This document shows, piece after piece, positions 2,209-62,047 of a DNA stretch of 64,000 nt. A program made the position numbers and the translations under genes. Positions within the stretch are counted from its first letter, which is position 1. Every line of letters starts with the position of its first letter. Source of the DNA: Shigella phage KNP5. The DNA lies in sequence record KX452698; one strand, written 5' to 3'. Under the pieces are notes generated by a model. It ran no database searches. It saw only the letters and a list, made by a program, of their open reading frames with translations, and was not told the DNA's origin.

Positions 2209-3891
2209 TTAAACCATTACAGTAAATCGACCAACTTTCTTCATTTGAAGATGCTGACCATATTCTTGCGGGTCATGGTCTTTATGCGAAATTATAAAAA
2301 CATTAGTATTTTTCATTGAATTTATAATATTAGCTACACCTTTAATACCTTCGGCATCAAATGACCCATCAAACACTTCATCGAGTATTAATGTACTAAT
2401 ACTAACACCAGATACAATAGAAGCAATATCACGCCAAGTAAATAAAAGAGCAATATCAATTCGTGCTTTTTCACCTTCACTAAATGAAGCATAACTAAAA
2501 TCTTCACGACCGCGGGATTTAATTGTCTCATTAAATTCTTCATCTAATGTAAACACATAATCCGCTTCCATTATTTTAAGATAATGGTTAATCTGCTTAT
2601 TAAATAATGGAATGTACTTTTTAATGATAGCACCTTTAATACCAGAATCTTTTAGCATATCAGTCAAAATTCCTCTATGGTATTTTTCCATTACTAAATT
2701 AGTTTTTGTCTTAACAATTTTATCAAGTTCTTCTTGAAGCAGTGCTATTTCATCAGCATGGTCAATAAACTCGGATGATGCTTTTTCTATAGCTGCTTTA
2801 ACTTTTTTAGCTTTATCTACCGTCGTGATTAGAGATTGCTTTTTATTGCGAATATCATTCGCCAACGTCTGCTGGGTTTTAATATTATCTCGGTATTCAT
2901 CAACGAGAACTTTTAAATTATCACGATGTGTTGAAAGCTGTTCAAACGAATGCGTGCATTCAGAAACTTTATCTTTAATTTTAGAAACAACTTTATCACC
3001 GGAACTTAATTGCGACAAACAGGTTGGACATAATCCACCTTCGTGATACATATTAATGACTTTATTATACGAGTCAATTTTTGATTTAATTAAAAATGCT
3101 TCTTGACCGATTTTATTAAATGCATCAGTCGGGTCTTCATCCAAAACAATATTAACTAGTCTTTCATTAGCTTCTTCTATTTCCGATTTTAGCGTTCTAG
3201 CTTCTTTTGCCAAATCATCATACATATTCTGTAGACGAGTAAGGTTGTCACCAGTTAATTTTTTCTGGCGTTCAACGTTATCATTATATATTTTAATTTG
3301 TTGGATAATACTATCTTTTTTAACATCAAGCACTTGGTTTTGTGAATTTAATTCACGTATTAGTGCTTTATTAAGCTTATCCATTTCAGCTAATGTTCCT
3401 ACCTCGAGCAGGTCTTCCACAAGCTTTCTTCGTGCAGGGGTCGACAAACCCATGAAAGGGGTATACCCTGCTGTACCAAGGACAACAATCTGCTTGAAAC
3501 TGGCATATGACATTCCGATAAGCTGTTCAAATTCTGCTTGGAAATCTTTACTGCTGGCAGATTCATTAAGACGTGTACCGTTAACGGTGATTTCGAAAAC
3601 ATTCGGTTTTTGTCCTCTTTTGATATAGTACTTTTTCTCATCATATTCCATCCACAGTTCAACTAAAAGTTCTTTCTTATTCGTGCTGTTTATTAATTGA
3701 CCTTTCTTTACATCACGGAATGGCTTGCCAAAAAGCCCAAACGTGATGGCTTCTAACATAGTAGACTTACCACCACCATTTCGGCCAGTAATAAGAGTTT
3801 TTTGAACCTTATCTAGTTGAATGTCAATAGGATTTCCACCTACTGACATTATATTTTGATACCTAACTCGGTTTAGTTTAAAATTCTTCAC
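2209..3891 (-). CDS. 46: Recombination endonuclease subunit gp46 (Rad50/SbcC-like ATPase, 560 aa)
   Basis: Walker A GRNGGGKST at N-terminus, long coiled-coil middle, C-terminal signature/Walker B region; length equals T4 gp46. Confidence 0.95.
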   Translation of the reverse strand: MKNFKLNRVRYQNIMSVGGNPIDIQLDKVQKTLITGRNGGGKSTMLEAITFGLFGKPFRDVKKGQLINSTNKKELLVELWMEYDEKKYYIKRGQKPNVFEITVNGTRLNESASSKDFQAEFEQLIGMSYASFKQIVVLGTAGYTPFMGLSTPARRKLVEDLLEVGTLAEMDKLNKALIRELNSQNQVLDVKKDSIIQQIKIYNDNVERQKKLTGDNLTRLQNMYDDLAKEARTLKSEIEEANERLVNIVLDEDPTDAFNKIGQEAFLIKSKIDSYNKVINMYHEGGLCPTCLSQLSSGDKVVSKIKDKVSECTHSFEQLSTHRDNLKVLVDEYRDNIKTQQTLANDIRNKKQSLITTVDKAKKVKAAIEKASSEFIDHADEIALLQEELDKIVKTKTNLVMEKYHRGILTDMLKDSGIKGAIIKKYIPLFNKQINHYLKIMEADYVFTLDEEFNETIKSRGREDFSYASFSEGEKARIDIALLFTWRDIASIVSGVSISTLILDEVFDGSFDAEGIKGVANIINSMKNTNVFIISHKDHDPQEYGQHLQMKKVGRFTVMV

Positions 3892-4151
3892 AAAAGGTTC
3901 CTTTTAATGTATCTTTTAGACCATTCTATCATATCATCATAATCTAAAAAGTATTCATCAAATTCAGCCATGCAAACAACACCTTGTGCTGCTTTTGATG
4001 TGATATAAATTATTCCAACATATCTAGAATCTTCTTCGGTGTAATCAATATTTGCTACGAATTCATCGTTAATGTCAAATGTCGAAAACTTCACAGTATG
4101 CATCCTTAATACAAGATACAGCCATATCTTGTAATGATTTAGGTGTGTCAT
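3888..4151 (-). CDS. Hypothetical protein (87 aa), start uncertain
   Basis: ORF between genes 47 and 46; overlaps next ORF by 77 nt in another frame. Confidence 0.4.
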   Translation of the reverse strand: MTHLNHYKIWLYLVLRMHTVKFSTFDINDEFVANIDYTEEDSRYVGIIYITSKAAQGVVCMAEFDEYFLDYDDMIEWSKRYIKRNLL

Positions 4152-4338
4152 TATCTAAAATGTTGAAGTTAAAAGATACAGCCCAGTCAGTGCAGACCGT
4201 AACCTTTTTAATACAATTATCTTCAACCTCTAGCGGTTCAAACCAATATTCAATAATTTCTTTATGCCCAATATCATCTTTTACTTCGCATTCAAAATGC
4301 TGACTCATCATAACATTTTTAAATTCATCAAAAGTCAT
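4075..4338 (-). CDS. Hypothetical protein (87 aa)
   Basis: ORF directly 3' of gene 47 with ATGA-type start/stop overlap. Confidence 0.45.
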   Translation of the reverse strand: MTFDEFKNVMMSQHFECEVKDDIGHKEIIEYWFEPLEVEDNCIKKVTVCTDWAVSFNFNILDNDTPKSLQDMAVSCIKDAYCEVFDI

Positions 4339-5354
4339 TGTGTTGCCTCTACATATAGCTGATTTGCATATTGAATAAGTGCTTCGCGGTCAGAATCAGT
4401 GATGTCTGGAATTGCATTAATGTATTCTTCCATCAACGTCTGAAGAGATTGAACTTCAACTTCTTCACTATCATCTGACTCGACAGAGTTATCAATCTTT
4501 GACACAACTCGTAATGAATGCACAACTTTTTCTAGTTCAGATTCAAACTTCGTTAGATTTTTGTCTACTTCAGTTACTATAACACGTACTGATAGATTTG
4601 TAAAATCTTTATAGTCAATTTTTCCCTTAAATGGATATTGAATTCGACGATGCCAGGTGGTGTTGTTTGGAATAAATTCCATTCGTTCTGTTTCTGTATC
4701 AAACATCCAGAACCCGCGAGGGTCATTCTCGTCACCTGCAGTTAGTGTCCATGGTGTCCCAATATATCTGACGTTAGCAGCCTCAGAGATAGTATGGAAG
4801 TGACCAGACCACACCTCTTTATAAGTCTTAAGGAAATCAGGTTCAAGACCGTGAGATTTCATTCCTTTATAAAAATAAAATCCATTCAGTTCCCAGTGAC
4901 CAACACAAAAAGAAGCAGATGAAGTTTTGATGTGTTCAAGAATTTCACCAGTATTTTCTTCACACATCCAAGGAATTAAATCAATCAAACATCCGTCAAA
5001 ATCTACTGTAGTAGGCTTATCATATACTTTAACATTAGGATATTTAGCCAAAAGCTCAGTAGAAGCATTTGGATGCATTACATTTTTGTAGTGGAGATCA
5101 TGATTTCCTACAACAGTATGTAGGGTAATACCAGCATCATCAAGCATTTGAACTATTTCACGGGCAAACTCCATAGTTTTATGCGTGATTGCTTTTCGCA
5201 CATCAAAAATATCACCATATTGAATCCATACAGTAATTCCATTTTTCTTAGAATATTCTATCGCTTGCTTAATTCCATCAATTTGAATACCGCGAATCCA
5301 CTCATCATCAGCTTTAACGCCTAAATGCCAATCACCCAAGTTTAGTATTTTCAT
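4335..5354 (-). CDS. 47: Recombination exonuclease subunit gp47 (Mre11/SbcD-like phosphoesterase, 339 aa)
   Basis: N-terminal LNLGDWHLG metallophosphatase motif, GNHD motif; length equals T4 gp47. Confidence 0.95.
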   Translation of the reverse strand: MKILNLGDWHLGVKADDEWIRGIQIDGIKQAIEYSKKNGITVWIQYGDIFDVRKAITHKTMEFAREIVQMLDDAGITLHTVVGNHDLHYKNVMHPNASTELLAKYPNVKVYDKPTTVDFDGCLIDLIPWMCEENTGEILEHIKTSSASFCVGHWELNGFYFYKGMKSHGLEPDFLKTYKEVWSGHFHTISEAANVRYIGTPWTLTAGDENDPRGFWMFDTETERMEFIPNNTTWHRRIQYPFKGKIDYKDFTNLSVRVIVTEVDKNLTKFESELEKVVHSLRVVSKIDNSVESDDSEEVEVQSLQTLMEEYINAIPDITDSDREALIQYANQLYVEATQ

Positions 5355-15096: not shown

Positions 15097-15417
15097 TTAT
15101 AGCGTAATCCATTCTCGTACTGTCTGAGTTACTACGCGTTCACGAGGCTCGACTAGTTCAACAGTCGGAACTGCATAATACCAGTCAGAATGGTAAGAAC
15201 CTGAGCGAGTTTCATTTACGGAAACATGTACATTGTGTTTTGGACTAAAATAAACACACTGACGATATTGGCATTTACCATCTTGCACCCAGTCTTCTAT
15301 TTCGATAGGTTTAAGATAATCTGAAAAATCGAAATCATAATTTTCTGAAAATGCATCATGGTCTTCGATGATTTCGCTCAGAACTGCATCAACATCTAAT
15401 TTATTTTCAATATTCAT
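15097..15417 (-). CDS. Hypothetical protein (106 aa)
   Basis: Minus-strand ORF. Confidence 0.5.
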   Translation of the reverse strand: MNIENKLDVDAVLSEIIEDHDAFSENYDFDFSDYLKPIEIEDWVQDGKCQYRQCVYFSPKHNVHVSVNETRSGSYHSDWYYAVPTVELVEPRERVVTQTVREWITL

Positions 15418-15427
15418 TTTTCACCAA

Positions 15428-15637
15428 TTAATTTCGCAATTTATTAAGTTCTTCATAATCAATCCAGGATTCTAATCCTGATGGCAAATCAGATTCAATT
15501 TCCCAAAGAAGCTCTTCAATTTTCTGAAGACGATCTAATTCTTCAGCTGGAATAGTAACCATCGACGGAGTTCTTGATACACTAATATCGTAAATCATAT
15601 TTACCCCAATTTGACCATACAATCGCCATATTTCCAT
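15428..15637 (-). CDS. Hypothetical protein (69 aa; start may be internal ATG at 15598)
   Basis: Minus-strand ORF overlapping neighbour. Confidence 0.4.
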   Translation of the reverse strand: MEIWRLYGQIGVNMIYDISVSRTPSMVTIPAEELDRLQKIEELLWEIESDLPSGLESWIDYEELNKLRN

Positions 15638-15816
15638 TTAGAAATAGACTTTTCACCATTAGAATAATAAACTTCGAGTTTAGCACGGTTATTTTTAATT
15701 TGAATAACCTTGGCTGTCATCAAAGTTCCATATCCATAATAAACTGCAACCTCATCACCTACATATACCGCGCTTCCGCGATAGTCATGGATATAATCAG
15801 TTCCTTCGAGCATCAT
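15601..15816 (-). CDS. Hypothetical protein (71 aa)
   Basis: Minus-strand ORF 3' of nrdC with ATGA overlap. Confidence 0.5.
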   Translation of the reverse strand: MMLEGTDYIHDYRGSAVYVGDEVAVYYGYGTLMTAKVIQIKNNRAKLEVYYSNGEKSISKWKYGDCMVKLG

Positions 15817-16077: not shown

Positions 16078-16320
16078 TTATTCCTTAATTCCTAGTACTT
16101 GTTTAAAAGTCTCGTCGTAATCAAGACTTTGGCCCGTTTGTTCTTTATGTTTGTATATAATATCACTTACTTCTGATAGCATATTTTTATATGAACGAGT
16201 TAAAGCAGATTTAAGCACGCTGTATCTATCAGGAAATTTACCATGTTCATTATAATACGCTATTGCTAATTCACGGACTGCCTTTTCAGCAGTCTTCATA
16301 TATTCTTTACGCTTGGCCAT
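16078..16320 (-). CDS. Hypothetical protein (80 aa)
   Basis: Minus-strand ORF. Confidence 0.5.
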
Positions 16321-16624
16321 TTTCTTCTCGGTTAAATCGGTGTTTGCAATGACGGCATTTATAACGAAGAATACTAGTCTGCCAATGAATTAATTGAACC
16401 TGTTCAGTACCGCATTCAGGGCAATTAGGAACGTTTTTAGAAGCCCTTTCGCGACGTTCAACCATAGCCATAATAGCATCCCAGGCTGGAGGTTTAAAAT
16501 CTAAATCATCACAACCATGAATCTTTCCACGCATTTCCAGATCGTCTTCTTCACCAGCCATAATAATTTTAATTAGACTTGAATTACTTGAAGCTGCAAT
16601 GTCTTCTAATAGACGCTTTTTCAT
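16307..16624 (-). CDS. Zinc-ribbon protein (105 aa)
   Basis: CPECG...(x17)...CRHCKH four-Cys ribbon near C-terminus. Confidence 0.5.
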
Positions 16625-17550
16625 TTCAATACCTCAATGGCATTACGTAAACCATTTGCTTTTGCATTAAGAGCTTTTAACAATTTGGTGTGTTCGGCAA
16701 TCTGGGCTTCAACTTCAATCAAGCGAGCATTGAGATATTCACGTTCTTCGCTCAAGTTATCAGCCTTTTCTACTTTAGGTTCTTTTACGTTTGGCTTATA
16801 TGTATTAGGGTTCTTCAGTTTAATTAGAATACGTGAACTGTATAACATTGAACCATTATCTTCGGTTTCGTCATACATTTCTACTACGTCCATGATTTTT
16901 AACATCATGCGGAGTTTATAAGACAACGAACGAATAGTTTTGTTGTGCTTATTAATTTCTCTAGAGTTCATGGTGCCGAGATTACGTGAGTAATAATAAG
17001 GAACCTGGATATTAATTAACACTGATGAACCACCTGGCTTGTGTGTTACTTCATCAGCAATAACCCAATCCTTAACATGAACTGTATTTGTACGGTCATC
17101 GCCTGCGGTAAATAGTTTGCGAGCATGCTTAAAAAGCATATTCACTTGGGCATTGAATTGACAAGCAAATTTATCAGCAAATTTAGTTTCAGGAATGGTA
17201 GATAACCAATCAGCCAAATGGGTCTTTTTAACATCGTTAACAATAGTAAATTCAACCAAATCGGTTATAGATGTCGTAGATTTAATGAAGCTCGGCTTCA
17301 TAAAGTTTTTAATGTTATCGCGAGCTACAGTAGAAGATAACATACGAGAACGTTTAAACCATTCAAGCAAATTGCCTAACGAATGAGAATAAGCGTTTTG
17401 AGTATCTTTACAGATATGATTTTCCTGGCCAACATATTGAAGGAAATCACGAAGAATATTATTGATTACTGCTCTGTGTCCGATCTGATAATTACGGTGT
17501 TTAGTAATAAGACTGTCAAAATAATCAATATAATGTTTACGAGTTTTCAT
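16621..17550 (-). CDS. Hypothetical protein with C-terminal coiled coil (309 aa), family member 1
   Basis: Globular N-terminal region then about 50-aa heptad-rich tail starting PKVEKADNLSEE... Confidence 0.55.
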   Translation of the reverse strand: MKTRKHYIDYFDSLITKHRNYQIGHRAVINNILRDFLQYVGQENHICKDTQNAYSHSLGNLLEWFKRSRMLSSTVARDNIKNFMKPSFIKSTTSITDLVEFTIVNDVKKTHLADWLSTIPETKFADKFACQFNAQVNMLFKHARKLFTAGDDRTNTVHVKDWVIADEVTHKPGGSSVLINIQVPYYYSRNLGTMNSREINKHNKTIRSLSYKLRMMLKIMDVVEMYDETEDNGSMLYSSRILIKLKNPNTYKPNVKEPKVEKADNLSEEREYLNARLIEVEAQIAEHTKLLKALNAKANGLRNAIEVLK

Positions 17551-17602
17551 GTTCTTCTCACTTGGTTAATGATTTATACTCCGAGCCATCCTTGGCTTTA
17601 AA

Positions 17603-18604
17603 TTACTTAATTAACTGTAAAGCTTGTTCAAGACGATCCAGGCGATTAACAGATTCTTCCCAAATCCTTTTAGCCTGCTCATATTCTTTCTGTGCTTTAT
17701 TAGAAATTTCTAGAACTTCTTTATAAGCTTTTTCTAATGCAATAACTTCTGGACGAATTTCTACCGGTTCAGGTGAATCATCAAGATTATCCATTAGTTC
17801 CTCAAGGGTAGTTTCTTCTTTAGGAGTATTCACAATTTCTTCACATTTTTGTTGGTAAATTTCTTTATCAGTCGGTGAGTACGCACATTTCACTTCACGA
17901 AGGCTAATTATAATTTTATATCCTTCCCAACCACACATATTTTTGAAAGGATATGTATGAATACTTTTTACAGTTTCCATACAGCCCAAAGCCGCCTCTA
18001 ATTGATAAGTTATAGTGCTAGCAATTGAGAAAAATTTATTAATATTCTTTTGGTTAGCGTTTGGTGTAAAAAATCCATAATTCACAAAAATAGCTACTTT
18101 ATTTTTATCAAGCTCATTTTCTTTTACGATAATCATATCAGAAGCCAAAGGATGAATTTGACGATAATCGCCATAACATAATTTAGAAGCTGATTTTAGA
18201 ATTTGTCCTTTGAAAAGTCTGAAATTACTAATCCAACGACGAGTAAAAATATTCTCAGGATCTTCTTTATTATTAAGATGATAAGAATTAACATCACCGA
18301 ACCAATTATATCCTACTACATCTTTAGTTCGTTTAATTTCTTTCCCAAATTTACTAAGAATATCTCTGTTGACTAAGTATGAAAGAAGACGAGAACCTTT
18401 AAAGGTTTCCTTAATGTCATCTTTATATGTACGACTAGAAATTTCACAAACTTCATAAATAAATTTGTCGGAAGAAACAATACTTGCACTAGTATTATTG
18501 ATCCATTGATTGATAATAGAAATCACACTATTCTGACTAGACATAGGTTTAACTTTATCATCAATAACGCTATTGAACGATTTGATATATTCGTTACGAG
18601 TCAT
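17603..18604 (-). CDS. Hypothetical protein with C-terminal coiled coil (333 aa), family member 2
   Basis: ATG 18602-18604 after GGAG RBS; tail EPVEIRPEVIALEKAYKEVLE... Confidence 0.55.
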   Translation of the reverse strand: MTRNEYIKSFNSVIDDKVKPMSSQNSVISIINQWINNTSASIVSSDKFIYEVCEISSRTYKDDIKETFKGSRLLSYLVNRDILSKFGKEIKRTKDVVGYNWFGDVNSYHLNNKEDPENIFTRRWISNFRLFKGQILKSASKLCYGDYRQIHPLASDMIIVKENELDKNKVAIFVNYGFFTPNANQKNINKFFSIASTITYQLEAALGCMETVKSIHTYPFKNMCGWEGYKIIISLREVKCAYSPTDKEIYQQKCEEIVNTPKEETTLEELMDNLDDSPEPVEIRPEVIALEKAYKEVLEISNKAQKEYEQAKRIWEESVNRLDRLEQALQLIK

Positions 18605-18661
18605 ATTAATCTCCTCAGTAGAAAGTAAGAACATTATACCACATCCTTGTGGCAAAGTAAA

Positions 18662-19684
18662 CTAGTTTAGTGCATTTAGTGCATTGTTCAGTTTAGAACG
18701 TTGCTTTGTCAGATTTTGAACCCTTGACTGAGCTTGTTCTAACACCTTTTCAGCTTCTAGCACTTCATTGGTCGCTTTAACGAGTTCATCATCTACTGCC
18801 TTAAGAGACTTCTCAATCGCATCGGCGTGCCATTTTTCTACAGGTTTAAAATTTGAATTTTCAGTAGGAAGAAAACTCACTTTATTAAGTTTACATGCAT
18901 CTATATTGCTTGAGCTATACATCCAAAATTTAGGATCGTTTGATGAGTAATTGGATAAATTTAAGATATCTTGCACTTCCTGCTTTTTCTCTTGCGGGAC
19001 TTCGTCCTTTCTCAAAAAATCGTATTTAAATGAAACGAACATATCAAGTTCATACGTTGTTGTGTCTAATTTAAATCGCTCAAAACGAGGTAAAATCTTA
19101 GACTGAACAGCGGCAACAACATCCATATACTTAAATGCTTCTGTCAATTGCGATTTAAGGCATTCGCAAATTGAAAGAGAATTTTTTGTGTTAGGTTTAA
19201 AGCTAATTCGCGCAGTTCTGTTATTTTCTTTTAATGGTCTTACTTCCATCTGAAGAGTATAACCATCAAATTTCAGGTTCTTTAAGTTAATGTCAGAACC
19301 TTTTAATCGACTAGCCGTCGACAAAATTTGCTTTAATTGTTTACGGAACAGAGCAATAAATCTCCATTCAATACGATAATGATTTGGATTGAAAAATCCA
19401 GATGATAAATCGACCTTACTTTGACCAACGCCTTGAACAAATAGAGGATTTTTATAATCAATAGTTTTACAGAAATTGGTGAGTTGCTCACGAGCCGTCA
19501 TTTGTGTAATATACCCCGCTTTACTAAAATTACTCACCCATTCACTGCTATTTAGATATTTAAAGTGATGAATAGCACGATTAACTTTATCAGGGTCTAA
19601 ATTATTTTCGCACAAAAATGTCATAACATTACGAGTATCGCTGGCAGTACGAACCATATCTTCAATTTGAGAACGAGTTTTCAT
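18662..19684 (-). CDS. Hypothetical protein with C-terminal coiled coil (340 aa), family member 3
   Basis: AAGGAA RBS; tail KPVEKWHADAIEKSLKAVDDEL...NALNALN. Confidence 0.55.
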   Translation of the reverse strand: MKTRSQIEDMVRTASDTRNVMTFLCENNLDPDKVNRAIHHFKYLNSSEWVSNFSKAGYITQMTAREQLTNFCKTIDYKNPLFVQGVGQSKVDLSSGFFNPNHYRIEWRFIALFRKQLKQILSTASRLKGSDINLKNLKFDGYTLQMEVRPLKENNRTARISFKPNTKNSLSICECLKSQLTEAFKYMDVVAAVQSKILPRFERFKLDTTTYELDMFVSFKYDFLRKDEVPQEKKQEVQDILNLSNYSSNDPKFWMYSSSNIDACKLNKVSFLPTENSNFKPVEKWHADAIEKSLKAVDDELVKATNEVLEAEKVLEQAQSRVQNLTKQRSKLNNALNALN

Positions 19685-19692
19685 GGTATTCC

Positions 19693-20583
19693 TTAAGATT
19701 TAAGTAAATCGACAATTTTAATTAACTTTTCACGCTCAGATTTAGCTTTACTACTCAATCCAGATAGTCTGAAAATTTCATCATCATATTGTTGAATAGA
19801 AATATTCAGCTCTTCAATCTGTTTATTAAAATAATCAATTTGTTCAGAATGTTTTTCGTTACTATGAACTTGTACAGGTTTTGTAGGCAATTTAGTTGAA
19901 CTGGATTCATCCGGGCGATAAATTAAAATACAACTTGAACCAATAGGGCATTTTGCACCAGATGAATATTCTAATGTTTCAGCTTCTTTTAAAACTTCAA
20001 AAGCTAAACAGAGATGATGACCCATATTGACATAATCTGTAGAGTGAGCTCTGATATAATAATCATCGCCACGAGTACTAAATTTAAAGCATTTAAGGTC
20101 TTCTGTATTATTGGTCTTAAAAATCATTTGTTTATCTAGACCTTTAGCTAATCGAGCGCCTAATGCTAATAATCGTCGTTGATTTTCCCACAAATCCGCA
20201 ATCATTTGATCGAATGATAATTTTGGCATTAGTCGACCATAAAGGTCATATCCTTTATTATAATTACGAAGGATTTCACTCGCGTTAATACGAGACAATG
20301 CTCCAATTTTATTAAGGGCTTTCATAATGCGATTAGATAAACTCATTCCAGACCCGTTTGTTCGCTGCAAATGTTTTTCTAATCCAAATCCAATATCAAC
20401 TTTAAACTTATCTAAAATTTCTGCATGAACATCTCTGTCAATAACATTTAAATCCAAAGTTGGGTTAAATCTATGAAAAAATTTATCTGGCTCTGCACTG
20501 CGAAATACAGTCCATTCATTCATCATTTTTTTATTAACTAAAGATTTAATTACTGCATTGACATTATTAATTACTACTGACAT
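19693..20583 (-). CDS. Hypothetical protein with C-terminal coiled coil (296 aa), family member 4
   Basis: ATG 20581-20583 after GAGG RBS; tail KPVQVHSNEKHSEQIDYFNKQIEELN... Confidence 0.55.
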   Translation of the reverse strand: MSVVINNVNAVIKSLVNKKMMNEWTVFRSAEPDKFFHRFNPTLDLNVIDRDVHAEILDKFKVDIGFGLEKHLQRTNGSGMSLSNRIMKALNKIGALSRINASEILRNYNKGYDLYGRLMPKLSFDQMIADLWENQRRLLALGARLAKGLDKQMIFKTNNTEDLKCFKFSTRGDDYYIRAHSTDYVNMGHHLCLAFEVLKEAETLEYSSGAKCPIGSSCILIYRPDESSSTKLPTKPVQVHSNEKHSEQIDYFNKQIEELNISIQQYDDEIFRLSGLSSKAKSEREKLIKIVDLLKS

Positions 20584-21053: not shown

Positions 21054-21581
21054 TTATGCGAGTACCGTCTTTAACCGTTCTTCAAACTTCCGAAGAGTAT
21101 TTTGGCGTTCAGCTCTTTGCTTTTTGTAAGTTTCAATACGCTCTGAAATGAGAGAGTATCGTTCATTTACTGATTCTTTCATAAAATCAGGAATTTCACG
21201 AGAAGCTTTAATCTCGTCAAATTTATCAATAACAGCTTGCTCTTCAGCAATTAAGTTATCATACATTAAAATATCTTTCTTGATGAACTCAATATCTTCT
21301 TGAGTTACACGAGATAATTTAGATGCTTTATCCTTTTTGTACTGTTCGTTAGTATCACGAGACCAGTGTAATGTACGATTTTTATTCGTATTCTTGTAAA
21401 TTTCTACAATACCGATCTCATCGATAATAACGATCCAATTCCAACGGGATTTGTAAATTTGTCCTCCATCAACAGTGATTTCACCTCCGATTGAGATGTC
21501 ATTAAAGAACTTGCTTTGTGCCTCAGATTTAAATTTACCATCGTTGTAATTTACCAAGTTGAAAATATCTTTAGCGTTCAT
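21054..21581 (-). CDS. Hypothetical protein with C-terminal coiled coil (175 aa)
   Basis: GGAGG RBS 3' of early promoter; charged helical tail. Confidence 0.5.
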   Translation of the reverse strand: MNAKDIFNLVNYNDGKFKSEAQSKFFNDISIGGEITVDGGQIYKSRWNWIVIIDEIGIVEIYKNTNKNRTLHWSRDTNEQYKKDKASKLSRVTQEDIEFIKKDILMYDNLIAEEQAVIDKFDEIKASREIPDFMKESVNERYSLISERIETYKKQRAERQNTLRKFEERLKTVLA

Positions 21582-22045: not shown

Positions 22046-23026
22046 TTATTTCAGAAGAGTAACCTCAGCAATTTCTTCCCAACCGTTTTTGTCGGTCATA
22101 ATAAAGTCAGCAAGATAAAGAGCAGTACGCAGTGAAACATTGCGTAAACGATTAACATTAACTTTCATCCATGATAATGCTTTATAAGTTTCTTCATCAG
22201 AAAGACCGCGCTTTTGCATCATGTCAGTTGAAAGAATAACATCTTCAACCCTGACCATAATTTCTTCATTAGTGTGAACACCCAAATCCAAATAAACCGA
22301 GCGGGACACTAATGCTTGTAAATGTGGAGCAAGTTTAGTACCACGGTCTAATTCGCGGTCAATGTCAACGTTTGTGATAAAAACAATCGTTCCTTTAAAT
22401 TCAAACTCACGCTCAATGCCTTTTTCTTCTAAGTAAGAAGACGCAGTGCTCCAGCAGACTTTACGGGTCTCTCCAGTGTCCAGAGCGGCTTTTAGAAGAT
22501 TAAGAATGTCCATATCAGAGAAAACATCTACATCATCAATCAAAAGGACAGAATTCTCTTCACGATTATTCCAAAGCTGCTCATAAAGACCAATACCAGA
22601 GATTTTACCATTAATGCTTTTATATTCAATGTATCCAATATCATTTGCTTTATTTAAAGCTTTATCTAAAGAATACGTTTTACCAATACCTGCTGCGCCA
22701 GAGATAATCAATGAACGAATATTTCCATTAATAATACCATTCGTCATCATTCCCATAACATTAAATCTTTTATTAATGCGGGTTTTCATATCTTCATATG
22801 ATTCTTTAACTTCTTCAACTTTTACACCATCATATGAAATATCTGATTTGTAAACCCAAACACCGCGACGTTTACCGTCAATTTCAACAAAAACTTTACC
22901 ATCTCCTTGTGCATCTACCGGAGCATTATCTGGGAACCATTCGCCTAAGAGCTCAAAAGTTCCAGAGATTTCTTTACCGAAGTAGATACCCTTATTGATA
23001 GTTACAGTTTTCATTTTATTCTCCAA
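22046..23026 (-). CDS. AAA+/P-loop ATPase of unknown function (326 aa)
   Basis: Walker A SGAAGIGKTY, Walker B VLLIDDVD, sensor-like FITNVD; GGAG RBS; first gene after early promoter. Confidence 0.7.
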   Translation of the reverse strand: MENKMKTVTINKGIYFGKEISGTFELLGEWFPDNAPVDAQGDGKVFVEIDGKRRGVWVYKSDISYDGVKVEEVKESYEDMKTRINKRFNVMGMMTNGIINGNIRSLIISGAAGIGKTYSLDKALNKANDIGYIEYKSINGKISGIGLYEQLWNNREENSVLLIDDVDVFSDMDILNLLKAALDTGETRKVCWSTASSYLEEKGIEREFEFKGTIVFITNVDIDRELDRGTKLAPHLQALVSRSVYLDLGVHTNEEIMVRVEDVILSTDMMQKRGLSDEETYKALSWMKVNVNRLRNVSLRTALYLADFIMTDKNGWEEIAEVTLLK

Positions 23027-23039
23027 ATCCGTATCAGTT

Positions 23040-23082
23040 GATAGTTGTATAGTACCATAAAGCTTTATGCTTGTAAACCGTT
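23040..23082 (-). promoter_or_regulatory. T4-type early promoter
   Basis: Same repeat family (gttgatagttgtatagtacc ... cttgtaaacc). Confidence 0.5.
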
Positions 23083-23106
23083 TTGTGAAAAAATTTTGAA
23101 ATAAAA

Positions 23107-23128
23107 AAGGGAGCCCGAAGGCTCCCTA
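23107..23128 (-). terminator. Intrinsic terminator 3' of nucleotidyltransferase gene
   Basis: GGGAGCC-UUCG-GGCUCCC stem-loop followed by UUUUUU on minus strand. Confidence 0.6.
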
Positions 23129-24142
23129 TCATTTATAATAACTTCGGTGGTTTTCAAGATAAACCCTCTCAAGGAAGTCATCCCAGAAACCCATGTCTAC
23201 TTTTTGCTGCATACCGTTCTTAGAAGCTTCAATGGATGCTGCTTCTACTTGATCGACCACATCTTCCAAAAACTCTTGAACAGTTTTAAATGGATGTTTA
23301 CCCAACTTCACGTCGAGAATAAATGGAGCGTCTTGAAGTGGATAGACTAAGTCACCAGTTTTGTAAATTTCCAATAGTTGGAGTCCACCACGGCAAGCAT
23401 GACTCAGAGCTTTCCAGTCAATGCCCTCATTCGCTTCAGCCTTACGAGCACGTTCGCCGTATTCAGCATCAAGTTTATTCAAAGACTGCTTAAGCTCAAT
23501 AAGAGAAAGCGTTGTTTGATATTTACGACCCAACACAGTGTAGAACGTTTGTGGACCTGTTTTCTCATGATTATGGAATACCCATTCACAGAATTCGTTC
23601 TCTGGAAGACGATGCTTAATATCTTCAACTTTAGTTCGACGCTGCTTAATGGAACCGTCTTCTTGGTAATCAACCCATTGCTCAGGGATTTGATTAACTA
23701 CTTTCAACACATCACGTAATGCGGCCAAACGAGAACCCTTAACACCGTATTTAGAAGCTTGCTTGCGAACATATCCTAAGTAGGATTTCATGTTGGTCGT
23801 ATAAAAACGAGAACGGTTGTCTTGAATAAACTTCCATACATCAGGCAAATCAGATTTAACTACTAGTTCCGGTGGAGTGTGGAGCATATCCAATGCTACA
23901 GTTTCACCATCTGCTGCTAATTTAAAGAAATACTTAAGACTGTATAGTTCATGGTCAATATCATCTTTAGTGTTTTTAGATGATGTGTTGTTAGTGTTTT
24001 TACTCATATGCTCTTTAACATTTCCAATAAGAATATCGCGAGCAGGAGGAACAAAGATTTCTTTAAAATCTACATCAGATTCTGGAGTAGAAGTTCCATA
24101 AAGATGACTACCAAAATAGCTTTTCATTACTGTTTTCATCAT
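23129..24142 (-). CDS. Pol-beta-superfamily nucleotidyltransferase-fold protein (337 aa)
   Basis: N-terminal GSHLYGTSTPESDVDF matches the hG[GS]x(9-13)DxD NTase signature; ATGA coupling to upstream membrane-protein gene. Confidence 0.6.
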   Translation of the reverse strand: MMKTVMKSYFGSHLYGTSTPESDVDFKEIFVPPARDILIGNVKEHMSKNTNNTSSKNTKDDIDHELYSLKYFFKLAADGETVALDMLHTPPELVVKSDLPDVWKFIQDNRSRFYTTNMKSYLGYVRKQASKYGVKGSRLAALRDVLKVVNQIPEQWVDYQEDGSIKQRRTKVEDIKHRLPENEFCEWVFHNHEKTGPQTFYTVLGRKYQTTLSLIELKQSLNKLDAEYGERARKAEANEGIDWKALSHACRGGLQLLEIYKTGDLVYPLQDAPFILDVKLGKHPFKTVQEFLEDVVDQVEAASIEASKNGMQQKVDMGFWDDFLERVYLENHRSYYK

Positions 24143-37264: not shown

Positions 37265-37858
37265 TTATTTCAGAGAATTAATGTATTCCTGAACATCGGC
37301 AGAGGTAGTTTCAACCCCAGAAATATTACCGTTAAAGGTTTCAACTCGAGCAAGGGTATCTTCAATATCAACCTTAGTCAGTGCTGCAATTTCAACTACA
37401 TCATCGGCAGTACTAATTCCAAGGGCATTTGCTGCACGAGTTTCACGGATATATTCCAATTTAACCGCAAGTTCTTGACGAGCATCATCTAACTCAACTA
37501 CTTTCTTGGCGATTTCAATTCGCATTTCAGCATAACCGTCAGCCTTAGTAGTCAACTGCTCAGCTGTTCGACGATATAGCAAGCCGAGTTTAGCGTGCAT
37601 TGTTACATCTTGACCTTCGGAAAGAAGTTTACGAATTTCACGCTCTTTTGATTCGGCCTGTCGATTCTTTTCGACAATAAGTTCACGAATACGTTTTTCT
37701 TCATTAATAGATTTAACAGAAGCAGTTTTTAGATCTTTAATTTTATCAAGCAGTTTTGCTGCTGCAGCAGTATACTGTTCTTCAACAGATAGATTTTTAG
37801 CCATAGCAGAACCAAGTTTAGTGCGAATAAATTCAACAATTTTCTTCAGTGTGTTCAT
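37265..37858 (-). CDS. Hypothetical all-helical/coiled-coil protein (197 aa)
   Basis: Heptad-rich charged sequence; weak PspA/IM30-like pattern, not confirmed. Confidence 0.5.
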
Positions 37859-60589: not shown

Positions 60590-62047
60590 ATGATTGAATT
60601 AAAAGAGTTACCTTTTGTTGATAGCGTTCCTGGCGAAGGTCAGGAACGTATTTCATGGATTAAAAATGGTGAAGAAATATTAGGAGCTAGTACTAAGTAT
60701 GGAAACGATGGGTCAATGAATAGACCAACTGTTTCCGTGTTTAAAAACGTCGAGGTTCTCGACGAAAATGTAGGAATTCTTAAAACTGCCATTGAAACAT
60801 CTCAGGAAGATATTAAAACTATTCAAGGCATTTTAGATGTATCAGGAGATATAGAAGCGCTATCACAGATCAGCGTTAATAAAAATGATATATCAAGTTT
60901 AAAGACGCTCACAAGTGAACATACTGATATATTAAATGGTACAAATACTACGGTTGATAATATTCTTTCTGATATTGGTCCATTTAATTCGCAAGCAAAT
61001 TCAGTTTATAGAACGATTAGAAATGATTTGCTGTGGATTAAAAGGGAACTAGGACAATATGCTGGACAAGATATTAATGGTCTTCCTGTTGTAGGAAATA
61101 GCAGCACGGGGATGAAGCACCGTATCATTAATAATACAGATGCTATAACTTCCCAAGGAATACGTCTAAGTGATTTGGAAGAAAAATTTATTGAATCTGA
61201 TGTAGGTTCGCTTACAATCGAAGTAGGAAATCTTAGACAGGAATTAGGACAAAGACCGCCTTCATTTAGTGAAAGTATATATTCACGTGTGCATAATTTA
61301 GATCAATCACAAATTAATCTTAATTCCGAAATTAAATCTATCAAAACTTCTATTGGATATCCAGGAAATACTTCAATAATCACAGATGTTAACACTAATA
61401 CACGAGAAATTTCAGCTTTAACTGATGAGCTAAATAAAAGCGGAGGTGTTAAACAGCGATTAACTGTCATTGAAACATCAATTGGCTCAGATGATATTCC
61501 TTCTAGTATTAAAGGTAAAATTAAAGATAATACAACATCTATTGAGTTTTTAAATGGAATTGTTGGTGAAAACACTTCATCTGGACTACGAGCAAACGTT
61601 TCGTGGTTAAACCAAATTGTTGGAACTGATTCTAGCGGTGGACAACCTTCTCCTCCTGGGTCTCTTTTAAATAGAGTTTCAACTGTTGAAACTTCCGTTA
61701 ATAGACTGAATAATGATGTTCAAAACTTGCAAGTTGAAATTGGTAATAACAATTCCGGAATTAAAGGACAGGTTGTAACATTAAATAAATTAGTAAATGG
61801 AACAAATCCAAATGGTTCAACTGTCGAAGAACGTGGATTAACTAATTCAATAAAAGCTAATGAAACTAACATTTCTTCTATTAATCAAGAAATGCGTAGT
61901 ATTAAAAGTAATGTATCTTCATTACAGGCGGATGTTCAGACTTTACAGGAAGCAGGTTATATTCCTGAAGCTCCAAAAGATGGTCAAGCTTACGTTCGTA
62001 AAGACGGCGAATGGGTATTACTTTCTACCTTTTTATCACCAGCATAA
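60590..62047 (+). CDS. wac: Fibritin, whisker/neck protein (485 aa)
   Basis: Long coiled-coil with C-terminal foldon [27 protein letters not shown]. Confidence 0.95.

Follow-up and report, generated by a model that had tools for sequence, protein, structure and literature searches.

Four tandem nrdC genes of a T4-like Shigella phage are paralogues with a heptad-rich tail and candidate inhibitors of host defence

A stretch of 64,000 nucleotides from Shigella phage KNP5 (sequence record KX452698), referred to here at its full length as the window, carries four consecutive genes, nrdC.3 to nrdC.6, whose products belong to one superfamily of paralogous proteins. We consider it probable, though with real reserve, that the four are ancient tandem paralogues composed of a body and a coiled-coil tail, of which nrdC.5 is an anti-Dsr1 gene and the other three are counter-defence factors acting on other host immune proteins. 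It was already known that the four are T4 genes and that nrdC.5 has a function. What is new here is that three Pfam families are united, and that the three remaining paralogues and a Straboviridae-wide family are nominated as candidate defence inhibitors.

The window is a Tequatrovirus (T4-like) genome, and the 6-kb stretch around the array is 96–99.8% identical at the DNA level to Tequatrovirus genomes such as those of Shigella phage Sfk20 and Escherichia phage KNP1. Where records follow T4 nomenclature, the genes of this stretch are called nrdC.3, nrdC.4, nrdC.5, nrdC.6, and nrdC.8, and the order in the T4 reference is the same (nrdC.11,.10,.9,.8,.7,.6,.5,.4,.3,.2,.1, nrdC, 49.3, 49.2, 49.1, pin, 49). 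All genes of the nrdC.x region lie on the minus strand of the window. An earlier interpretation made from the letters of the DNA (the sequence-only reading) had described four consecutive open reading frames (ORFs), and its coordinates and lengths proved to be exact. These genes and nrdC.8 are as follows (lengths in amino acids, aa):

16621..17550, minus strand: nrdC.3, 309 aa; PF26897 Phage_T4_Y04OP; ORF call
17603..18604, minus strand: nrdC.4, 333 aa; PF26897; ORF call
18662..19684, minus strand: nrdC.5, 340 aa; Pfam DUF7235 (PF23882); ORF call and Pfam match
19693..20583, minus strand: nrdC.6, 296 aa; PF26899 Phage_T4_Y05B; ORF call
21054..21581, minus strand: nrdC.8, 175 aa; PF26901 Phage_T4_Y05D

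The nrdC.5 protein matches the DUF7235 model over its full length with 394.5 bits (cut-off 30), and nrdC.3, nrdC.4, and nrdC.6 have no match to this model. The PF26897 and PF26899 assignments come from precomputed Pfam hits on close homologues; for PF26899, the nrdC.6 homologues that carry it are 44–97% identical. Both nrdC.3 and nrdC.4 match phrog_1435 (E 2e-116 and 3.5e-163), and nrdC.6 matches phrog_2257 (E 1.4e-149). The product of the ORF at 18662–19684 is 92.4% identical to T4 nrdC.5 (AF158101.6) and occupies the same genomic position in the same gene order, and as judged from sequence it is the orthologue of that gene.

In pairwise blastp comparisons among the four proteins, only nrdC.3 and nrdC.4 are significantly similar (26% identity over 228 aa). 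Because pairwise blastp is too insensitive to reject homology, profile comparisons were used. Shallow profiles built from eight loci gave weak links only. With hhalign, nrdC.3 and nrdC.4 align over their full length with 97.6% probability, and the profile obtained by merging nrdC.3 and nrdC.4 is co-linear with nrdC.5 (residues 14–333 versus 7–340; 83% probability, E value 9e-6). A natural chimera, P0056, was excluded from the profiles before this comparison; a match between nrdC.3 and nrdC.5 at 98.8% probability was spurious, caused by the presence of this chimera in the profile. An hmmsearch of 1.84 billion representative proteins with the nrdC.3+nrdC.4 profile found 10 proteins and no cellular homologues. 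Since an exhaustive search yields only 10 representatives, the nrdC.3+nrdC.4 family has, in terms of sequence, a very narrow range. One of the 10 is a bridge protein, P0232 of Klebsiella T4-like phages (E 5e-4), whose body matches nrdC.4 (24% over 292 aa) and whose tail matches nrdC.5 (34% over 71 aa). Only close relatives were returned when viral contigs were searched for related loci, and likewise when homologous proteins were sought with nrdC.5.

Predicted structures extend the relationship to nrdC.6. In AlphaFold2 (AF2) models of nrdC.4 (predicted local distance difference test score, pLDDT, 83.5) and nrdC.6 (pLDDT 76), the order of elements is identical: a helical N-terminal region, short strands, an H-H-h helical segment, a beta-hairpin, a long helix, a second beta-hairpin, a linker, and a terminal helix. 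The nrdC.4 model thus begins with a helical N-terminal region, continues with an alpha/beta core and a disordered linker, and closes with a terminal helix of 48 residues. Foldseek comparison of this model with BFVD returned full-length matches at probability 1.0 to uncharacterised Straboviridae proteins of 280–370 aa from T4-like phages of Acinetobacter, Pectobacterium, Enterobacter, Erwinia, Yersinia, Serratia, and Klebsiella. The nrdC.4 model also matches nrdC.6 of phage JS10 (E 5e-5), and the nrdC.6 model shares six BFVD targets with it, all full length and at probability 1.0. A MAFFT alignment of superfamily representatives is co-linear, with shared motifs that include an N-terminal M(K)TR, FK.SR.LS...L..FG, an ILK.ASKL helix, an L..A...MD.VE helix, and the tail.

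Taken together, nrdC.3 to nrdC.6 are paralogous members of a single superfamily, which Pfam divides into PF26897, PF23882 (DUF7235), and PF26899. This superfamily is seen only in Straboviridae phages, and nrdC.6 is the most divergent of the four. The N-terminal regions, which had looked unrelated in the sequence-only reading, are therefore not so: nrdC.3 and nrdC.4 are homologous, their merged profile is co-linear with nrdC.5, and the structure prediction proposed for the N-terminal domains gave nrdC.4 and nrdC.6 bodies of shared fold. The idea of a diversified family sharing a module survives as a family with a conserved C-terminal coiled coil, although its members are co-linear paralogues throughout and not unrelated domains.

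Several other assignments were considered and rejected. Matches to designed helical repeats in the PDB are compositional, and PDB sequence searches found no solved structure for any relative. Membership among tail terminator and completion proteins (lambda gpU, T5 p142, SPP1 gp17-like proteins, and the collar proteins of gene transfer agents and pyocins) was not accepted; there is a resemblance of fold only, which we retain as a lead. Nitroreductases and ribosomal proteins score almost as well as tail terminators in the fold comparison, and no Pfam or PDB sequence match links the four genes to tail terminators. The array lies between nrdC and nrdC.10 in an early, dispensable accessory region, not in a tail or neck gene module. 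Finally, many GenBank records label homologues of nrdC.1–nrdC.11 as thioredoxins. No thioredoxin or glutaredoxin Pfam match was found for nrdC.3–nrdC.6 or for any scanned member among nrdC.3–nrdC.11, and the nrdC.4 and nrdC.6 models are not thioredoxin-like. This label has evidently spread from the nrdC.x gene names.

Each of the four proteins ends in a tail module, encoded at the following positions:

16624..16779, minus strand: nrdC.3 tail, PKVE segment and heptad helix, ending LRNAIEVLK
17606..17773, minus strand: nrdC.4 tail, PEPVE segment and heptad helix, ending LEQALQLIK
18665..18847, minus strand: nrdC.5 tail, KPVEKWH segment and heptad helix, ending LNNALNALN
19696..19881, minus strand: nrdC.6 tail, KPVQVH segment and heptad helix, ending LIKIVDLLKS

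The P-V/E segments and the heptad-rich tails of 45–55 residues described in the sequence-only reading are present in all four proteins. In a single unbroken register over the last 48–55 residues, 12/14, 12/14, 14/15, and 12/16 of the a/d positions of nrdC.3, nrdC.4, nrdC.5, and nrdC.6, respectively, are hydrophobic, and the register counted from the C-terminus is the same in all four after correction for a single additional residue in nrdC.6. The AF2 models predict terminal helices at residues 285–332 of nrdC.4 and at 242–272 and 278–295 of nrdC.6, in both cases following a disordered linker and not packed on the body. The best 28-residue heptad window of each of the four proteins also lies in its tail (z = 2.0–3.4 versus shuffles), as measured with a home-made score that is not a calibrated coiled-coil predictor. 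No such window was found in nrdC.1, nrdC.2, nrdC.7, or nrdC.9. Among the 73 ORFs of at least 100 aa in the window, 10 score at or above the lowest of these values, and in six of these the heptad window is C-terminal; five of the six are nrdC.3,.4,.5,.6, and.8, all within 5 kb. Elsewhere in the window, a 197-aa ORF (37265–37858, minus strand) has a strong heptad window ending exactly at its C-terminus, and a 485-aa ORF (60590–62047, plus strand) has the highest heptad score of the window, at residues 425–452.

The tails were also compared with a hidden Markov model (HMM) built from independent sources in other genera: P0232 of a Klebsiella phage, Enterobacter phage IME523, IME08 orf82, and the nrdC.5-like genes of VR26 and P479. 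This model scores nrdC.5 at 41 bits, a value reached by none of 500 register-preserving shuffles. The scores for nrdC.6 (12.8 bits), nrdC.3 (10.8 bits), and nrdC.4 (6.9 bits) are reached by 8, 5, and 6 of 500 shuffles, respectively, and in full-length scoring nrdC.5, nrdC.6, and nrdC.3 are the top three of the 73 window ORFs. The tail alignment has a conserved start, P-x-x-K-P-[VI]-E-x-[WYH]-H, and a conserved finish, (Q)R-x-K-L-x-x-A-Φ-x-Φ-L-K, of which the start is the feature noted in the sequence-only reading. In the nrdC.5 tail, the start KP[VI]E.[WYH]H and the end QR.KL..A...L.K are both kept in relatives from Dhakavirus, Gaprivervirus, Kanagawavirus, and Klebsiella phages. A terminal motif that was defined post hoc, L..[AI][ILV].[LVA][LI][KN], occurs four times in 23,765 ORF residues, each time at the C-terminus of one of nrdC.3–nrdC.6. 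Among cross-genus orthologues, the tail is better conserved than the body in nrdC.4 (61% versus 42%), nrdC.6 (66% versus 41%), and nrdC.3 (80% versus 59%). The tails have no DNA-level similarity to each other. Judged by their sequences, they appear weakly to resemble each other beyond their coiled-coil character.

A similar tail had also been attributed to nrdC.8, and a relationship with the four was not confirmed. Its C-terminal heptad window (residues 145–172) has 9/14 hydrophobic a/d positions, a weaker pattern than in the four. Comparison by hhalign with every family gave P values of at least 0.06 and no profile similarity, and the tail HMM score of 6.4 bits is not significant (reached by 32 of 500 shuffles). 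At the level of sequence, nrdC.8, which has its own Pfam family (PF26901), is not demonstrably a member of the superfamily.

The number of gene copies at this locus varies among phage genera. Enterobacter phage IME523 (Kanagawavirus) and Klebsiella phages have a single copy; in IME523 and in a Klebsiella-phage-like metagenomic contig, L009, it occupies the syntenic position. Dhakavirus IME08 and the Gaprivervirus phages VR26 and P479 have three copies, namely nrdC.4, nrdC.6, and an nrdC.5-like gene that has diverged strongly (about 27% identity to nrdC.5). Tequatrovirus has four copies, and nrdC.3, which is absent from the Dhakavirus and Gaprivervirus loci, is a duplicate of nrdC.4 specific to this genus. 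In other genera, the relatives present as a single copy are 11–25% identical. Because no DNA-level repeat exists between the copies of the array, the duplications must be old. The ancestral locus would have held one copy, already followed by an nrdC.2-like gene; duplication would then have produced the three copies of Dhakavirus and Gaprivervirus, and duplication of nrdC.4 into nrdC.3 the four of Tequatrovirus.

The array shows further variation. In a set of 652 phage records, the nrdC.3 sequences form three discrete classes by identity (at least 94%, about 75–78%, and about 61%), and the DNA around the gene is 90–99% identical, a pattern that suggests allelic replacement or balancing diversity. 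Copies of nrdC.4 that are split into two ORFs or tblastn pieces, which suggests frameshifts, occur in locus L005 (6971–8003), phage T2 (PV648363.1), and a T4 variant (KJ477685.1). Salmonella phage Manna carries an in-frame nrdC.6::nrdC.4 hybrid of 345 aa (positions 3715–4752 of locus L014), in which residues 1 to about 271 of nrdC.6 are joined at ...DDEI|VNTPKEE... to about 255–333 of nrdC.4, with nrdC.5 and most of nrdC.4 deleted. The chimera P0056 mentioned above comes from a 167-kb contig and is an nrdC.5::nrdC.3 hybrid that lacks nrdC.4. Phage ACG-C40 retains only an out-of-frame nrdC.5/nrdC.3 remnant (positions 4305–4716 of locus L013) comprising 70 N-terminal residues of nrdC.5 and the last ~80 of nrdC.3. 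The ratio of nonsynonymous to synonymous substitution rates (dN/dS) within Tequatrovirus is 0.15–0.28 for nrdC.3–nrdC.6 versus 0.04–0.10 for nrdC.1, nrdC.8, and nrdC.10. Thus, the four genes are under selection and evolve faster than their neighbours.

The functional evidence comes from T4. A T4 clone that had lost plating on ECOR17 was rescued by deletion of the host dsr1 gene, and plasmid-borne nrdC.5, which the authors call an early gene, restored plating of the T4 deletion clone on K-12 carrying Dsr1 (Srikant, Guegler, Laub, eLife 2022; PMC9391042). Dsr1 is a defence protein with a SIR2 (sirtuin) domain, and its sensor, a homologue of that of Avs7, responds to the major capsid protein of the phage (PMC13581612). 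The sequence-only reading had guessed at an anti-defence array, a suggestion supported by this activity of T4 nrdC.5 and by the neighbouring genes, among which nrdC.1 acts against Septu and gp49.2 against OLD. According to the HIDEN-SEQ supplement, a T4 transposon screen found nrdC.3–nrdC.6 all to be non-essential on K-12. Our literature search found no paper on nrdC.3, nrdC.4, or nrdC.6.

If the favoured reading is correct, the build of the superfamily would be a helical N-terminal region followed by an alpha/beta core, in which two helices and a beta-hairpin precede a long helix and a further beta-hairpin, and then by a disordered linker. The linker would start with a P-V-E-like segment and lead into an amphipathic heptad helix of 45–55 residues ending in L-x-x-A/I-Φ-x-Φ-L/I-K/N. 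The fast-evolving body would be the target-binding part that sets specificity, and the conserved tail would form a coiled coil through which the protein assembles into homo-oligomers or, possibly, into mixed oligomers of paralogues. Such oligomers are predicted to bind oligomeric defence proteins multivalently. nrdC.3, nrdC.4, and nrdC.6 would neutralise other host immune proteins, and the various paralogues and alleles may address different defences or different variants of a sensor.

Several observations weigh against this interpretation. An experimental phenotype exists for nrdC.5 only, and it was measured on the T4 allele rather than on that of the window. In one HIDEN-SEQ comparison, nrdC.3, nrdC.4, and nrdC.6 had no significant effect. 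The roles given to tail and body, oligomerisation and target binding, are inferred. The sequence link between nrdC.6 and nrdC.3 reaches P ~1e-3 only (hhalign) and is weak, the place of nrdC.6 in the family comes mainly from predicted structures with modest template modelling scores (TM-scores) of 0.3–0.5, and the AF2 models cover two of the four proteins, nrdC.4 and nrdC.6. In addition, hhalign comparison of the tails alone (last 50 residues) is not clearly above a heptad-preserving null in which alignment columns were permuted within each heptad position. The best cases are the pairs among nrdC.3,.4, and.5, whose observed scores are reached by 1–3 of 30 shuffles, and pairs with nrdC.6 or nrdC.8 are at the null. 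Because this test is essentially at the null, we do not claim tail homology from it. The likeness of the tails noted in the sequence-only reading is therefore upheld by the tail HMM from other genera and by the terminal motif, but not by direct tail-only profiles. That reading had named a lack of significant tail similarity in profile comparisons and matches to unrelated known T4 proteins as outcomes that would refute it. These have come about in part: the tail-only profiles are weak and the proteins match T4 nrdC.3–nrdC.6, and the family relationship is unaffected by either result.

It might be reasonable to suppose that the shared tail reflects nothing other than generic coiled-coil composition, with a convergent or chance similarity and no common function. 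The tail-only hhalign result and the post hoc nature of the terminal motif would fit this explanation. However, the HMM from other genera places three of the four proteins at the top of the window ORFs and gives P ~0.01–0.016 for nrdC.3, nrdC.4, and nrdC.6 against register-preserving shuffles, the heptad register from the C-terminus is identical in all four, and the tail is the best-conserved part among orthologues. Moreover, since the bodies are homologous in any case, descent of the tails from a common ancestor is the simpler explanation, and we regard a purely generic tail as improbable. Still harder to credit is the possibility that four unrelated globular domains each gained the same coiled-coil docking module by domain shuffling. 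This scenario draws on the lack of body similarity by blastp for most pairs, on the three separate families held by Pfam, and on the natural hybrids, which show that recombination between body and tail is possible. Nevertheless, profile and fold comparisons give co-linear, full-length relationships, the secondary-structure elements of nrdC.4 and nrdC.6 come in the same order, and the tails lack similarity at the DNA level. The hybrids themselves represent recent deletions between neighbouring paralogues, not ancient shuffling. The four proteins are paralogues of a single fold, co-linear along their entire length. Their shared tail was inherited and is not a shuffled module.

A more serious alternative, which we nonetheless hold to be unlikely, is that the four genes are true paralogues whose family function is not generally counter-defence. 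The anti-Dsr1 activity of nrdC.5 would then be a lineage-specific side activity, or the other three proteins would act on another host or phage process such as early host takeover or assembly. In keeping with this idea, nrdC.3, nrdC.4, and nrdC.6 are without a known phenotype, and the low identities of the single-copy relatives (11–25%) and of the Dhakavirus and Gaprivervirus nrdC.5-like genes (about 27%) mean that the activity is not simply transferable. Against it, the genes sit in a proven anti-defence island, are dispensable on K-12 as far as the screen cited above reports, and exhibit copy-number variation, discrete alleles, and raised dN/dS, which is the usual signature of accessory genes in an arms race. 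If the family should prove unrelated to defence, the merger of three Pfam families of unknown function would still be useful.

We also entertain a specific version of the counter-defence interpretation, which is speculative and to our minds doubtful. The tail-terminator-like alpha/beta core might be an exapted structural fold that, joined to the oligomerising coiled coil, is made early and acts as a soluble, multivalent decoy or plug for pattern-recognition receptors of the host that detect conserved structural proteins of phages by their shape (such as Dsr1 and Avs7-type sensors), with each paralogue or allele tuned to a different receptor. If this were true, the four-gene array would be the phage-side counterpart of the diversified repertoire of host sensors.

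The gene calls on which these comparisons depend are consistent with the available annotation. A Shine–Dalgarno-like GAGG/AAGG motif lies 5′ of each of the four chosen ATG codons. For nrdC.4 and nrdC.6 the ORF list has longer TTG or ATG starts too, and the chosen starts match both the T4 annotation and the N-termini kept in distant orthologues; the nrdC.4 start at 18604 has a GAGGAG motif and the conserved N-terminus MTRNEY. In the T4 reference AF158101.6 (positions 3303–4200 of locus L011), nrdC.6 has a 1-nt deletion relative to the window (GCTGAATATT -> GCTG-ATATT), as a result of which the annotated protein has 275 aa and loses the distal coiled-coil tail. The T4 annotation in the HIDEN-SEQ supplement gives nrdC.6 as 891 nt, as in the window, and the discrepancy reflects either a true difference between strains or a sequencing error of long standing. 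One promoter candidate lies just upstream of nrdC.4:

18633..18661, minus strand: sigma-70-like promoter match, TTTACT, 17-nt spacer, TGnTATAAT; a consensus match only

A promoter scan of the region gave 58 sigma-70-like matches versus 51.8 expected from shuffles, and thus no enrichment.

The genes that follow the array in the direction of reading belong to the same accessory region:

16307..16624, minus strand: nrdC.2, a small Zn-finger-like protein with two CxxC pairs
16078..16320, minus strand: nrdC.1, orthologue of the T4 Septu inhibitor, 98% identical to T4
15097..15417, minus strand: gp49.2, 97% identical to T4 gp49.2

Inhibition of Septu by nrdC.1 is reported in a preprint (10.1101/2025.11.20.689424), and inhibition of the OLD defence has been shown for the T6 homologue of gp49.2 (PMC13096335). 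The start of nrdC.2 overlaps the stop of nrdC.3 by 4 nt, and an nrdC.2-like gene directly follows a family member in T4, IME08, VR26, P479, and contig L009 (2761–2985), which is to say at every locus examined. This adjacency may reflect translational coupling or a functional link. Between nrdC and gp49.2, the place held in T4 by 49.3 (309 nt) is taken in the window by two small ORFs of 69 and 71 aa that overlap each other (15428–15816). The same slot in phage PaulHMueller, compared by size and position, holds similarly sized small ORFs of 71 and 56 aa, one of which matches DUF7205. The 49.3 position adds a further variable site to this accessory island. On the other side of the array, in the stretch 22046–24142, nrdC.10 is a P-loop protein resembling AAA or STAND ATPases (weak Pfam matches), and nrdC.11 is an RlaP-like nucleotidyltransferase (PF10127, E 3e-11). 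A strong GC-rich hairpin, AGGGAGCC-TTCG-GGCTCCCT, followed by a T-run, lies between these two genes (23108–23127).

About 130 genes of T4 are still without a function, and nrdC.5 is among the few to which one has recently been assigned. Paralogy turns the orphan genes nrdC.3, nrdC.4, and nrdC.6 and their Straboviridae relatives into explicit candidate defence inhibitors, with relatives seen in phages of Escherichia/Shigella, Klebsiella, Enterobacter, Acinetobacter, Pectobacterium, Erwinia, Yersinia, and Serratia. Because the domain with which Dsr1 senses the capsid also occurs in Avs7 and in many further effectors, a family of inhibitors directed at that class of sensor would matter for phage host range and for the engineering of phages for therapy.

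Compared with known systems, the closest is T4 NrdC.5 itself, of which the ORF at 18662–19684 is, by sequence, the orthologue, with anti-Dsr1 activity demonstrated on the T4 allele only. The paper that established this activity does not describe paralogy with nrdC.3, nrdC.4, and nrdC.6 (PMC9391042). PF26897, PF23882, and PF26899 have been treated as separate families of unknown function and are joined here into one superfamily. The internal proteins IPI–III of T4-like phages and the dmd-tifA-adfA “anti-TA island” offer a parallel as clustered, dispensable, fast-evolving genes that act against different defences and vary in copy number (PMC9391042). In contrast to those sets, the members of the nrdC.3–nrdC.6 array are homologous to each other and have a common coiled-coil tail. 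To our knowledge, neither feature has been described for IPI–III or for dmd-tifA-adfA.

DSAD1, the inhibitor of DSR2 from SPbeta-type phages, is a functional analogue of nrdC.5, in that a phage protein disarms a SIR2-type defence that depletes nicotinamide adenine dinucleotide. No relationship of sequence or fold between the two is seen or expected. The triggers of the two targets also differ: DSR2 is triggered by the tail tube protein, whereas Dsr1 senses the major capsid protein via its Avs7-like sensor (PMC13581612).

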